From Escherichia coli (GTDB taxonomy: Bacteria; Pseudomonadota; Gammaproteobacteria; Enterobacterales; Enterobacteriaceae), in NCBI RefSeq assembly GCF_003334355.1, contig NZ_QOWP01000005.1: a stretch of 64,000 nucleotides of DNA; one strand, 5' to 3'. Numbering within the stretch: position 1 is the stretch's first letter; each line of letters starts with the position of its first letter. Under the pieces are notes generated by a model, which was not told the DNA's origin, made no database searches, and saw only the letters and a program-made list of their open reading frames with translations. The translations under genes and the position numbers were made by a program. Positions 21,591-44,355 of the stretch are shown here, piece after piece.

Positions 21591-23291
21591 GTGATTGTTA
21601 AACGACCCGTCTCGGCCAGTCTGGCCCGGGCCTTTTTTTACATTGTGCTGCTGTCGATTCTTTCCACGGGTATCGCTCTGCTAACTCTGGCGAGCAGTTT
21701 GCGCGACGCTGAGGCTATCAATATTGCCGGATCGCTGCGTATGCAGAGTTACCGCCTGGGCTACGACTTGCAAAGTGGCAGTCCACAACTCAATGCACAT
21801 CGCCAGTTATTTCAGCAGGCACTGCATTCACCGGTATTAACCAACCTCAACGTCTGGTATGTGCCAGAAGCAGTAAAAACTCGCTATGCGCATCTGAATG
21901 CCAACTGGCTGGAGATGAATAATCGGCTCAGCAAGGGCGATTTGCCGTGGTATCAGGCCAATATTAATAATTATGTTAATCAGATAGACCTGTTCGTACT
22001 GGCTTTACAGCACTACGCTGAACGCAAAATGCTGCTGGTGGTGGCGATTTCCCTGGCTGGCGGCATCGGTATTTTCACGCTGGTCTTTTTTACTTTGCGC
22101 CGCATACGCCATCAGGTGGTTGCCCCGCTGAATCAGCTGGTTACCGCCAGTCAGCGTATTGAACACGGGCAGTTCGACTCGCCGCCGCTGGATACCAACC
22201 TGCCGAATGAGCTTGGTCTGCTTGCAAAAACCTTTAACCAGATGTCGAGCGAGCTGCATAAATTGTACCGTTCGCTGGAAGCGTCAGTAGAAGAAAAGAC
22301 CCGCGATCTCCACGAGGCCAAGCGTCGTCTGGAGGTGTTGTATCAGTGTTCGCAGGCGCTGAACACTAGCCAGATTGATGTGCATTGTTTCCGCCATATT
22401 TTGCAGATTGTTCGCGACAATGAAGCGGCTGAATATCTGGAGTTAAATGTCGGTGAAAACTGGCGGATTAGCGAAGGGCAACCAAACCCGGAATTGCCGA
22501 TGCAGATTTTACCGGTGACAATGCAAGAGACGGTTTACGGCGAACTGCACTGGCAAAATAGTCACGTTTCATCATCAGAACCGCTACTTAACAGCGTTTC
22601 GTCGATGCTGGGACGCGGTTTGTACTTTAATCAGGCGCAGAAGCATTTTCAGCAATTATTGTTGATGGAAGAACGTGCGACCATCGCCCGCGAATTGCAC
22701 GACTCGCTGGCTCAGGTACTTTCTTACTTACGTATCCAGTTGACGTTACTGAAGCGTTCGATACCGGAAGATAACGCCACCGCACAAAGTATCATGGCCG
22801 ATTTTTCCCAGGCGTTGAATGATGCTTATCGGCAGTTACGCGAGCTGTTGACTACTTTCCGCCTGACGCTGCAGCAGGCGGATCTCCCCTCCGCATTGAG
22901 GGAAATGCTGGATACGTTACAAAATCAAACCAGCGCCAAACTGACCCTCGACTGCCGTCTGCCAACCCTGGCACTGGATGCGCAAATGCAGGTGCATTTG
23001 TTGCAAATTATTCGCGAAGCGGTGCTGAATGCGATGAAGCACGCCAACGCCAGCGAAATCGCCGTCAGTTGCGTCACCGCGCCGGACGGCAATCACACGG
23101 TTTATATCCGTGATAACGGGATTGGTATCGGTGAACCGAAAGAACCCGAAGGTCATTATGGTCTGAATATCATGCGCGAACGCGCGGAACGGCTAGGTGG
23201 GACGCTGACTTTTTCACAACCTTCCGGCGGCGGCACGTTAGTGAGTATTAGCTTTCGCTCTGCGGAGGGTGAGGAAAGTCAGTTAATGTAA
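21591..23291 (+). CDS. narQ: nitrate/nitrite sensor histidine kinase NarQ
   Basis: ORF track 21576..23291; start placed at GTG giving MIVKRPVSASLARAFFYIV (566 aa); H-box HDSLAQ present. Confidence 0.92.
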   Translation: MIVKRPVSASLARAFFYIVLLSILSTGIALLTLASSLRDAEAINIAGSLRMQSYRLGYDLQSGSPQLNAHRQLFQQALHSPVLTNLNVWYVPEAVKTRYAHLNANWLEMNNRLSKGDLPWYQANINNYVNQIDLFVLALQHYAERKMLLVVAISLAGGIGIFTLVFFTLRRIRHQVVAPLNQLVTASQRIEHGQFDSPPLDTNLPNELGLLAKTFNQMSSELHKLYRSLEASVEEKTRDLHEAKRRLEVLYQCSQALNTSQIDVHCFRHILQIVRDNEAAEYLELNVGENWRISEGQPNPELPMQILPVTMQETVYGELHWQNSHVSSSEPLLNSVSSMLGRGLYFNQAQKHFQQLLLMEERATIARELHDSLAQVLSYLRIQLTLLKRSIPEDNATAQSIMADFSQALNDAYRQLRELLTTFRLTLQQADLPSALREMLDTLQNQTSAKLTLDCRLPTLALDAQMQVHLLQIIREAVLNAMKHANASEIAVSCVTAPDGNHTVYIRDNGIGIGEPKEPEGHYGLNIMRERAERLGGTLTFSQPSGGGTLVSISFRSAEGEESQLM

Positions 23292-23366
23292 TGCCTCCTA
23301 CTGACCAAAGAATACTTGCACTTAAGGTTCAGTATAAAAGGGCATGATAATTTACATTAACTCCTT

Positions 23367-23384
23367 TTTTTCTCCACGATTGGC
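23367..23384 (+). promoter_or_regulatory. BaeR-box-like site TTTTTCTCCACGATTGGC upstream of acrD
   Basis: Matches the BaeR binding consensus (TTTTTCTCCATDATTGGC) as I recall it, with one mismatch; ~70 nt upstream of the acrD start. Confidence 0.6.
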
Positions 23385-23454
23385 TCGTACCTTGCCGCTA
23401 CAGTGAAGCAAGTCAAGCCTACAACGATACGCAGAAACACGAGGTCCTCTTTTA

Positions 23455-26400
23455 ATGGCGAATTTCTTTATTGATCGCCCCATTTTTGCCTGGGTGCTGG
23501 CAATCCTGTTGTGTCTGACAGGTACCCTGGCGATTTTTTCATTGCCCGTTGAACAATACCCCGATCTCGCGCCACCGAATGTGCGAGTGACCGCTAACTA
23601 TCCCGGCGCATCGGCCCAGACGCTGGAAAACACCGTGACCCAGGTTATCGAGCAAAATATGACCGGCCTCGATAATCTCATGTATATGTCATCTCAGAGC
23701 AGTGGCACCGGTCAGGCATCTGTCACTTTAAGTTTTAAAGCAGGCACCGATCCGGACGAAGCCGTGCAGCAAGTACAAAACCAGCTGCAATCAGCCATGC
23801 GAAAGTTACCGCAGGCGGTGCAAAATCAGGGCGTGACGGTGCGTAAAACCGGCGATACCAACATTCTGACCATTGCCTTCGTCTCTACCGATGGTTCGAT
23901 GGATAAACAGGATATTGCTGATTATGTTGCCAGTAATATTCAGGACCCGTTAAGCCGCGTAAATGGCGTCGGGGATATTGATGCCTATGGTTCGCAATAT
24001 TCCATGCGTATCTGGCTGGACCCGGCGAAACTCAACAGTTTCCAGATGACAGCTAAAGATGTCACTGATGCCATTGAGTCACAGAACGCGCAGATTGCGG
24101 TTGGGCAACTTGGTGGTACACCTTCCGTCGATAAGCAGGCGCTCAACGCCACCATTAACGCCCAGTCACTGCTGCAAACACCAGAACAGTTCCGCGATAT
24201 CACCTTGAGGGTGAATCAAGACGGCTCAGAGGTAAGGCTGGGCGATGTCGCCACCGTCGAAATGGGGGCGGAGAAATACGATTATCTTAGCCGCTTCAAT
24301 GGTAAGCCAGCCTCCGGGCTGGGGATAAAACTGGCCTCCGGCGCAAACGAAATGGCGACAGCGGAGCTGGTGCTCAATCGTCTCGACGAGCTGGCGCAGT
24401 ACTTCCCGCACGGACTGGAATACAAGGTGGCGTATGAAACCACCTCGTTTGTTAAAGCCTCCATTGAAGACGTGGTGAAAACGCTGCTGGAAGCTATCGC
24501 TCTGGTTTTCCTCGTTATGTATCTGTTCCTGCAAAACTTCCGCGCCACGCTGATACCCACTATCGCCGTGCCGGTGGTGTTGATGGGAACCTTCTCCGTA
24601 CTTTACGCCTTCGGTTACAGCGTCAACACCTTAACCATGTTCGCGATGGTGCTGGCGATCGGTCTGCTGGTGGATGACGCCATCGTGGTGGTGGAAAACG
24701 TCGAACGTATTATGAGTGAGGAAGGACTCACTCCTCGCGAAGCCACACGTAAATCGATGGGGCAGATCCAGGGGGCACTGGTCGGGATTGCGATGGTTCT
24801 TTCAGCGGTATTTGTACCAATGGCCTTCTTCGGCGGCACCACCGGTGCCATCTATCGCCAGTTCTCTATTACCATTGTTGCGGCGATGGTGCTGTCAGTA
24901 CTGGTAGCGATGATCCTCACTCCGGCTCTGTGTGCCACACTACTTAAGCCACTGAAAAAAGGTGAGCATCATGGGCAAAAAGGCTTTTTTGCCTGGTTTA
25001 ACCAGATGTTTAACCGCAACGCCGAACGCTACGAAAAAGGGGTGGCGAAAATTCTCCACCGTAGCCTGCGCTGGATTGTGATTTATGTCCTGCTGCTTGG
25101 CGGCATGGTGTTCCTGTTCCTGCGTTTGCCGACGTCGTTCTTACCGCTGGAAGACCGTGGCATGTTTACTACCTCGGTACAGTTGCCCAGCGGTTCAACG
25201 CAACAACAGACCCTGAAAGTCGTTGAGCAAATCGAGAAATACTACTTCACCCATGAAAAAGACAACATCATGTCGGTGTTTGCCACCGTTGGTTCTGGCC
25301 CTGGGGGTAACGGGCAAAACGTGGCGCGAATGTTTATCCGCCTGAAAGACTGGAGCGAACGCGACAGTAAGACCGGCACCTCGTTTGCCATTATCGAGCG
25401 TGCAACGAAGGCGTTTAACCAAATTAAAGAAGCTCGCGTTATCGCCAGCAGCCCGCCAGCAATTAGCGGTCTTGGTAGTTCTGCAGGTTTTGATATGGAG
25501 TTGCAGGACCACGCTGGAGCGGGTCACGATGCGCTGATGGCAGCACGTAATCAGTTGCTGGCGCTGGCGGCGGAAAACCCGGAGCTAACCCGTGTGCGCC
25601 ATAACGGCCTCGACGACAGTCCGCAGTTGCAGATTGATATCGACCAGCGTAAAGCTCAGGCGCTGGGCGTTGCTATCGACGATATTAACGACACACTGCA
25701 AACCGCCTGGGGTTCGAGCTATGTGAATGACTTTATGGATCGCGGTCGCGTGAAGAAAGTCTATGTGCAGGCAGCTGCGCCGTATCGCATGCTGCCAGAT
25801 GACATCAATCTCTGGTATGTCCGAAATAAAAATGGCGGCATGGTGCCCTTCTCTGCTTTCGCGACCTCACGCTGGGAAACAGGCTCGCCGCGTCTGGAAC
25901 GCTATAACGGTTATTCTGCGGTTGAGATTGTTGGGGAAGCCGCACCGGGGGTCAGTACCGGTACGGCGATGGATATTATGGAATCGTTAGTGAAGCAGCT
26001 GCCAAACGGCTTTGGTCTGGAGTGGACGGCGATGTCGTATCAGGAGCGGCTTTCCGGCGCGCAGGCTCCGGCGCTGTACGCCATTTCCTTGCTGGTGGTA
26101 TTCCTGTGTCTGGCTGCGTTGTATGAAAGCTGGTCGGTGCCGTTCTCGGTAATGCTGGTCGTGCCGCTGGGGGTAATCGGCGCGCTGCTGGCAACCTGGA
26201 TACGCGGGCTGGAAAACGACGTTTACTTCCAGGTGGGCCTGTTAACGGTCATTGGTTTATCGGCGAAAAACGCCATCCTGATCGTCGAGTTTGCTAACGA
26301 GATGAACCAAAAAGGCCACGACCTGTTTGAAGCGACGCTCCACGCCTGCCGTCAGCGTTTACGCCCGATTCTGATGACCTCGCTGGCATTTATCTTCGGC

Positions 26401-26568
26401 GTATTGCCAATGGCAACCAGCACGGGTGCCGGTTCCGGTGGTCAGCATGCGGTGGGTACTGGCGTAATGGGCGGGATGATTTCGGCCACTATTCTGGCTA
26501 TTTACTTCGTGCCGCTGTTCTTTGTACTGGTGCGCCGCCGCTTCCCGCTGAAGCCGCGCCCGGAATAA
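23455..26568 (+). CDS. acrD: RND-family aminoglycoside/multidrug efflux pump AcrD
   Basis: 1037-aa ORF; RND transporter sequence recognised. Confidence 0.95.
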
Positions 26569-42774: not shown

Positions 42775-44355
42775 ATGAGTTATTCTGTGATGTTCGCTTT
42801 ACTCCTGCTCACGCCGCTGCTTTTTTCGCTGCTCTGTTTTGCCTGCCGGAAACGGAGACTTTCTGCGACTCGCACGGTGACCGTATTACATAGCTTAGGG
42901 ATCACACTGCTGCTGATTCTGGCACTCTGGGTGGTCCAAACTGCCGCTGATGCAGGAGAAATATTCGCTGCGGGACTGTGGCTTCATATTGATGGTCTGG
43001 GCGGTTTGTTCCTCGCCATTCTTGGTGTGATTGGCTTTCTCACCGGTATTTACTCGATTGGCTACATGCGTCATGAAGTGGCACACGGCGAGCTTTCACC
43101 CGTTACGCTGTGCGATTACTACGGTTTCTTCCATCTGTTTTTGTTCACCATGCTGCTGGTTGTTACCAGCAATAACCTGATTGTGATGTGGGCGGCGATC
43201 GAAGCCACCACCTTAAGCTCGGCGTTTCTGGTAGGCATTTACGGTCAGCGTTCATCGCTGGAAGCTGCATGGAAGTACATCATTATTTGTACTGTTGGTG
43301 TCGCTTTTGGTCTGTTCGGTACCGTGCTGGTATACGCCAACGCCGCCAGCGTTATGCCGCAGGCAGAAATGGCGATATTCTGGAGCGAGGTTCTTAAGCA
43401 ATCGTCCTTGCTTGACCCAACATTAATGCTGTTGGCCTTTGTGTTTTTGCTAATTGGCTTTGGTACCAAAACCGGGCTATTTCCCATGCACGCCTGGCTG
43501 CCGGATGCTCACAGTGAAGCGCCGAGTCCGGTCAGCGCCCTGCTCTCCGCCGTATTGCTGAACTGCGCGCTGTTGGTGCTGATTCGCTATTACATCATTA
43601 TTTGCCAAGCCATCGGCAGCGATTTCCCCAACCGGTTGTTGCTCATCTTCGGCATGTTGTCGGTTGCCGTGGCGGCATTTTTCATTCTGGTACAGCGGGA
43701 CATTAAGCGTCTGCTGGCGTACTCCAGCGTGGAGAACATGGGGCTGGTCGCGGTGGCGCTAGGCATTGGCGGGCCGCTGGGAATTTTTGCCGCGCTGCTG
43801 CACATCTTAAACCACAGTCTGGCAAAAACGCTGCTGTTCTGCGGTTCCGGCAATGTACTGCTCAAGTACGGCACGCGCGATCTCAACGTCGTCTGTGGGA
43901 TGCTCAAAATCATGCCATTTACCGCCGTGCTGTTTGGCGGCGGTGCGCTGGCGCTGGCAGGGATGCCGCCCTTCAACATTTTTCTTAGCGAATTTATGAC
44001 CATTACCGCCGGACTGGCACGTAATCACCTGCTGATTATCGTCCTGCTGTTATTGCTGTTAACGCTGGTGCTGGCGGGCCTGGTACGGATGGCAGCGCGG
44101 GTGTTAATGGCGAAACCGCCGCAGGCCGTTAACCGGGGTGATCTCGGCTGGTTGACCACCTCGCCAATGGTGATTCTGCTGGTCATGATGCTGGCGATGG
44201 GAACGCATATTCCACAACCTGTCATCAGGATCCTGGCGGGCGCTTCCACTATAGTCCTCTCAGGGACGCACGACCTGCCTGCACAACGTAGCACCTGGCA
44301 TGATTTTTTGCCTTCAGGCACCGCATCTGTTTCGGAGAAACACAGTGAACGTTAA
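42775..44355 (+). CDS. hyfF: hydrogenase-4 membrane subunit HyfF (NuoN/M-like)
   Basis: 526-aa polytopic ORF. Confidence 0.92.

Follow-up and report, generated by a model that had tools for sequence, protein, structure and literature searches.

A conserved tandem-repeat module upstream of Escherichia coli acrD is a probable operator for direct activation by BaeR

The element at positions 23367–23384 of the 64,000-nucleotide stretch of Escherichia coli DNA analyzed here (the window) is very probably the operator used by phosphorylated BaeR for direct activation of the acrD promoter under envelope stress. The 18-mer found there is an already published BaeR box, and its recognition in the window is a correct rediscovery of a known site. 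What we add to that earlier work is modest: the module, when its limits are redrawn, is wider than the published box, and its spacing to a conserved −10 element is fixed.

The source of the window is the E. coli chromosome. A 1.1-kb query spanning the site matches 5425 of the 5426 complete E. coli genomes, and each of these 5425 has narQ and acrD annotated as the flanking genes. In the RefSeq E. coli annotation, positions 23292–23454 are the entire narQ–acrD intergenic region, the narQ stop codon lying at 23289–23291 and the acrD ATG at 23455. The 251 bases from 23250 to 23500 are 100% identical to K-12 MG1655, and window coordinates are converted to NC_000913.3 coordinates by adding 2,564,140. 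The features of the region are collected in Table 1.

Table 1. Features of the narQ–acrD region in window coordinates; frequencies are mean top-base frequencies among acrD orthologues
Feature	Coordinates	Strand	Remarks
narQ CDS, upstream neighbor	21591–23291	+	ORF list and annotation
TTTACA element	23351–23356	+	Always 20 bp 5′ of the core; TTTACA in 52/56 loci; frequency 0.98
Upstream 11-bp repeat, ACTCCTTTTTT	23360–23370	+	TCTCC/TCTTC in 53/56 other species
BaeR box, published 18-nt, TTTTTCTCCACGATTGGC	23367–23384	+	MG1655 2587507–2587524; −88 to −71 from the acrD ATG
Promoter-proximal 11-bp repeat, TCTCCACGATT (box core)	23371–23381	+	TCTCCACGWTT in orthologues; upstream of 56/58
Variable spacer of constant length, including the GGC end of the 18-mer	23382–23398	+	Frequency 0.52
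−10 hexamer TACAGT, predicted	23399–23404	+	TAnAnT exactly 28 bp after the T of TCTCCA, 51/56 loci
Shine-Dalgarno GAGG	23441–23444	+	10 nt 5′ of the acrD ATG, read from the sequence
acrD CDS, 1037 aa, regulated gene, RND pump AcrD	23455–26568	+	ORF list and annotation

A sequence-only reading of the window had noted a BaeR-box-like sequence at about 23367–23384, upstream of acrD and one mismatch away from the BaeR binding consensus. A sequence search finds the box at exactly this position, on the plus strand. The consensus, TTTTTCTCCATDATTGGC, is quoted letter for letter in PMC3915751 and PMC3799227, and the mismatch count is borne out, as TTTTTCTCCACGATTGGC agrees with it at 17 of 18 positions, the sole difference being C for T at 23377. 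The box is the only match to TTTTTCTCCATDATTGGC within the 64-kb window, even at three or fewer mismatches. None of 100 dinucleotide-preserving shuffles of the window gave any match with one mismatch or fewer; at three or fewer, 19 of the 100 did.

The argument from this agreement is partly circular. Nishino, Honda and Yamaguchi reportedly described the E. coli acrD BaeR-binding motif, with the consensus TTTTTCTCCATDATTGGC, in 2005 (J Bacteriol 187:1763), and later papers attribute the consensus to Nishino and colleagues. That attribution is made in both PMC3915751 and PMC3799227. In E. coli MG1655, the proximal spy box is TTTTTCTCCATAATTGGC, an exact instance of the consensus, and the mdtA box is TTTTTCTCCCTTATTGGC. 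Read in the order spy, mdtA and acrD, position 10 holds A, C and A, position 11 holds T, T and C, and position 12 holds A, T and G (that is, D). The column-wise summary of these three E. coli boxes is exactly TTTTTCTCCATDATTGGC, and the acrD site appears, on this comparison, to be one of the three founding sequences of the published consensus. Because the consensus summarizes the spy, mdtA and acrD boxes, a one-mismatch match to it is insufficient by itself.

Two matrices avoid the circularity from opposite sides. The first, a log-odds matrix, was built only from the spy sites of E. coli, Salmonella and Citrobacter and the E. coli mdtA site. Far from scoring poorly against it, the acrD site at 23367 ranks first among the ~128,000 positions of the window, with a score of 25.0 versus 14.1 for the runner-up, and the best score in 20 shuffled windows, 18.3, falls below it. 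The second, reverse matrix drew only on acrD orthologue sites from outside Escherichia. In regions of 1–1.8 kb, its top hits are the known spy box (16.4) and the mdtA box (8.9), both above the 99.99th percentile of the window for this matrix (4.9), and the mdtA upstream repeat scores 7.4. Another BaeR box in the literature, TCTNCANAA (Yamamoto 2008, quoted in PMC3799227), falls inside the 18-mer at spy (TCTCCATAA), and the acrD sequence TCTCCACGA matches it at six of the seven specified bases. The next-best hits of the BaeR-core matrix in the window, at 43723 (minus strand), 13408 (plus strand) and 55194 (plus strand), score 12–14 versus 25–27 for the acrD site. We treat these as chance matches, given their far lower scores and the location of 43723 and 13408 inside long ORFs.

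The site is also deeply conserved. With AcrD residues 1–400 as the query, a scan that covered one genome for each GTDB species identified 58 AcrD orthologue loci (75–99% identity), in genera that include Escherichia, Citrobacter, Enterobacter, Kosakonia, Pluralibacter, Cedecea, Erwinia, Pantoea, Serratia, Yersinia, Pectobacterium, Brenneria, Rahnella and Hafnia. The same scan provided 22 AcrB-like loci (62–65% identity) as controls. At most orthologues, the best match in the 400 bases upstream is a core of the TTTCTCCACG type on the coding strand, and in the Enterobacteriaceae the 18-mer match begins 86 to 91 bases before the acrD ATG. At the AcrB-like controls, the best matches have 5–8 mismatches and scattered positions, with the exception of one locus with three mismatches. 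The exceptional sequence, TTTTTCGCCATGCTTGTC, lies 250 bases upstream of the AcrB-like paralogue of Pseudescherichia vulneris (~2251 of locus L075), presumably inside the upstream membrane-fusion-protein gene. A degenerate TCTCCACG-like core pattern, for which we estimate ~0.14 chance occurrences per locus, is present at 56 of the 58 AcrD orthologue loci and at none of the 22 controls, counts that overstate the number of independent observations because orthologous sites are phylogenetically related. The core-bearing loci span the Enterobacteriaceae, Erwiniaceae, Yersiniaceae, Pectobacteriaceae, Hafniaceae and relatives.

Anchored on the core and aligned without gaps, these loci yield the consensus gaTaaTTTACA.TaTCTcCTt..TTTCTCCACGtTT(17 variable)TA.AGTg. 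The mean top-base frequency is 0.96 at 23369–23381, where eight of the columns are fixed by the search pattern; 0.91 in the TCTCCTT block (23360–23366); and 0.88 in the TAnAGT block (23399–23404). These last two blocks, like TTTACA, lie outside the search pattern. The flanks on either side of the module average only 0.45–0.49. The tandem repeat TCTCC-N6-TCTCC has an unvarying period of 11 bp in 53 of 56 species, the upstream copy in E. coli being ACTCC. Among the orthologues, the module stands anywhere from ~80 to ~350 bases before the ATG, and the spacing to the −10 is nonetheless constant. Conserved blocks set against a spacer that varies freely in sequence and not in length are, as read from this alignment, the signature of constrained protein-binding positions. 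Within E. coli, no other part of the intergenic region is as constrained as the control module: among the 5426 genomes, the 50-mer that contains it (23351–23400) is found exactly in 5339, the 50-mer of the predicted 5′ leader (23405–23454) in 4307 and that of the upstream intergenic DNA (23292–23341) in 3166.

By the orthologue alignment, the limits of the conserved unit differ from those of the published box. The unit reaches beyond the 18-mer in the 5′ direction, as far as 23351, taking in TTTACA and the second TCTCC, and it stops short of the 3′ GGC. Among acrD orthologues, GGC (23382–23384) is not conserved, with an information content of 0.1–0.5 bits; at spy, ATTGGC is kept in E. coli, Salmonella and Citrobacter. 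The published consensus may mix a true core with an E. coli-specific flank. In PMC3915751, the 3′ GGC served to align the E. amylovora acrD motif, TTCTTCACGATTACTGGC (−166 to −148), with the E. coli consensus. In other Erwinia species (AATTTCTCCACGATTA; loci L032, L036 and L040), the orthologous register makes TCTTCACGATT the counterpart of TCTCCACGATT, and for this reason the published E. amylovora alignment seems to be shifted by about 2 bases.

The TTTACA element may be a −35-like hexamer, a further, third contact for BaeR, or half of a CpxR site standing alone (minus-strand GTAAA). The acrD sequence at this point, TTTACA(C/T)T(T/A)TC, resembles TTTTACACTTTCATTG of the spy promoter, which is located just 3′ of the spy BaeR box (~1237–1222 of locus L003, minus strand) and does not vary among E. 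coli, Salmonella and Citrobacter. A TTTACA-like element common to acrD and spy is a candidate for a shared extra BaeR contact or CpxR half-site.

In the mechanism we favor, phosphorylated BaeR, an OmpR/PhoB-family response regulator, would act directly at the acrD promoter in envelope stress, and the functional unit would probably be the two tandem 11-bp direct repeats. The repeats stand at a fixed 28 bp from the −10-like TACAGT, with the conserved TTTACA upstream of them. A tandem direct repeat is what a dimer of an OmpR/PhoB-family winged-helix regulator would be expected to bind, and a BaeR dimer would presumably occupy the acrD repeats in this geometry. If TACAGT is the −10 element, transcription would start near 23410–23411. 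This would place the proximal repeat roughly from −40 to −30, over a −35 region whose hexamer, ACGATT, fits the consensus poorly. RNA polymerase would then be recruited or stabilized by BaeR, much as by PhoB at pho boxes, in what we infer to be a class II-like activation. The −10 candidate itself agrees with the −10 consensus at only four of six positions. A strict sigma-70 consensus scan of 23200–23520 called no promoter, which fits a promoter that depends on an activator and has a poor −35. We found no measured acrD transcription start in the supplements of Cappable-seq and SMRT-Cappable-seq studies, and no relevant primer-extension report. An Rfam scan of 23150–23600 at E values up to 1 gave no match.

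The published regulation of acrD has been approached by several routes. The genes acrD, mdtA and spy have been described as forming the core BaeSR regulon, with co-regulation by CpxR, and in Salmonella the induction of acrD is BaeR-dependent (PMC3160322). Induction of acrD by indole via CpxR requires BaeSR (PMC4107485, citing Hirakawa 2005). For E. coli, phosphorylated BaeR has been described as a direct regulator of acrD (PMC10052836, citing Hirakawa 2005), and the BaeR targets in RegulonDB include acrD (Table 2 of PMC7657598). In an electrophoretic mobility shift assay, the DNA fragment upstream of Erwinia amylovora acrD is shifted by BaeR (PMC3915751), and at Salmonella sodA mutation of similar boxes abolished binding of BaeR-P (PMC3799227). 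In RNA-seq, knockout of baeR changes acrD by log2 −2.9 under ethanol (~7.5-fold down, p about 2e-39) and by log2 −0.2 in unstimulated cells, and knockout of cpxR changes it by log2 −1.9 (PMC7657598 supplement). The sequence-only reading had regarded the element as a BaeR box serving envelope-stress induction of this RND pump gene. BaeR dependence under ethanol accords with the stress link, and the identification of the box is supported by the non-acrD matrix, by conservation among orthologues and by the published BaeR dependence.

Genome-wide binding data provide the counter-evidence. ChIP-exo with myc-tagged BaeR in 5% ethanol detected peaks at spy and mdtA and none upstream of acrD, and the authors class acrD as an indirect BaeR target (PMC7657598). 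Because the operator is conserved, we judge a false-negative ChIP-exo result at acrD to be more likely than indirect regulation by BaeR, although this is not proven.

Several other explanations of the element can be weighed against direct activation by BaeR. First, another regulator, such as CpxR, EvgA or a further OmpR-family protein, could bind the box, with BaeR affecting acrD only indirectly. The missing ChIP-exo peak and the decrease of acrD in the cpxR knockout (PMC7657598 and its supplement) would both be accounted for in this way. Further, CpxR co-regulation extends to all three genes, spy, mdtA and acrD (PMC3160322), so that a shared motif alone cannot separate BaeR from CpxR, and a lone GTAAA half-site is present on the minus strand at 23352–23356. 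However, no GTAAA-N5-GTAAA at two or fewer mismatches occurs within 23292–23454. Moreover, the points that are specific to BaeR, namely the second box TCTNCANAA inside the spy 18-mer and its six-of-seven match at acrD, the loss of BaeR-P binding at mutated sodA boxes (PMC3799227) and the shift of the E. amylovora acrD fragment (PMC3915751), argue against this explanation, and we consider it unlikely. Across the whole window, GTAAA-N5-GTAAA at two or fewer mismatches occurs 61 times versus 40.5 ± 5.8 expected, a number that none of 100 shuffles reached; this excess is probably a codon or composition effect rather than a set of CpxR sites.

Second, the conserved blocks could be a constitutive core promoter of acrD, with TTTACA (23351–23356) as the −35 and CACGAT (23375–23380), 18 bp downstream, as a weak −10. 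TTTACA matches TTGACA at five of six positions, CACGWT retains the A (position 2) and the T (position 6) that are critical in a −10, and each block is conserved. This possibility seems very unlikely, since it leaves the equally conserved TAnAGT and the repeated TCTCC unaccounted for, does not explain why 13–18 nt recur at spy and mdtA in other promoter contexts, and is at odds with the stress-induced, BaeR-dependent expression of acrD (PMC7657598 supplement); nor was the TTTACA/CACGAT pair called in the promoter scan. Finally, a chance resemblance in AT-rich, T-rich intergenic DNA, or a T-run (seven consecutive T's precede the core) that serves as the tail of a narQ terminator, is effectively refuted by the absence of one-mismatch matches in 100 shuffles, by the deep conservation with fixed spacing and by the lack of a terminator-like hairpin in a scan of 23200–23520 or of an Rfam match, the fold of 23285–23375 being unremarkable (z = −1.0) and the T-run having no adjacent stem.

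One base of the module sets E. coli apart. Position 23360, the first base of the upstream TCTCC repeat, is A in E. coli, and T is found there in 54 of the 56 other Enterobacterales species. This departure counts against the favored operator model, as does the unequal spacing from box to −10-like hexamer at acrD and mdtA. The 50-mer with the A allele is found exactly in 5339 of the 5387 matching E. coli records, and the one with the ancestral T allele in 0 of 5387. T is retained in E. albertii and in a cryptic-clade “E. coli” (locus L006; 91.7% nucleotide identity in acrD). The T-to-A change is fixed in, and specific to, E. coli sensu stricto. A23360 may weaken the upstream half-site and lower the occupancy of BaeR in E. 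coli. A fuller version of this idea, which we offer tentatively and hold to be doubtful as a whole, is that the true acrD module is tripartite, TTTACA-N4-TCTCC-N6-TCTCCACGWTT at a fixed 28 bp from the −10, rather than the published 18-mer, with A23360 weakening BaeR occupancy in E. coli. If that were true, the weakened occupancy would explain the absent ChIP-exo peak at acrD, and it would also explain the reported need for CpxR in boosting BaeR-driven induction of acrD.

The acrD module can be compared with related control regions. Relative to the published acrD box, the locus and the 18 bases are identical and there are no sequence differences; only the boundaries are redrawn by the orthologues. 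The mdtABCD–baeSR promoter is similar in its general plan, with a box identical to that of acrD at 15 of 18 positions (the mdtA comparison had been suggested by the sequence-only reading), a second CTCC upstream (CCTCCA) and −10-like hexamers nearby. It differs in its repeat period, which is 10 bp (CCTCCATTTT/TCTCCCTTATT) versus 11 bp at acrD, in how far the box stands from the nearest −10-like hexamer, 18 or 23 bp versus 28 bp, and in having a BaeR ChIP-exo peak, which is absent at acrD (PMC7657598). At spy, the distal box in Citrobacter is TCTCCACGATT, identical to the acrD core. The two spy boxes, separated by 22 bp, seem to be located well upstream of the promoter, with intervening CpxR boxes before the start site, whereas the acrD repeats are adjacent and promoter-proximal.

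The closest analogy outside the BaeR regulon may be the pho box, at which PhoB binds tandem 11-bp direct repeats about 10 bp from the −10. As proposed for acrD, the repeats overlap or replace a poor −35 and the promoter is activator-dependent, so that by analogy a similar mode of activation would be plausible here. The analogy is one of mechanism only, as the gap between repeats and −10 would be 17 bp at acrD versus about 10 bp at pho boxes, and both the sequence and the regulator differ.

In general terms, the site ties the sensing of envelope stress (indole, copper, zinc, tungstate, ethanol and flavonoids) to induction of an efflux pump for aminoglycosides and beta-lactams. This link between stress and acrD, which was published in 2005, is relevant to adaptive antibiotic tolerance. 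To it, the present analysis adds non-circular support for direct regulation by BaeR, against the indirect assignment of the ChIP-exo study, as well as a redrawn conserved module and the identification of an E. coli-specific substitution in its upstream repeat.
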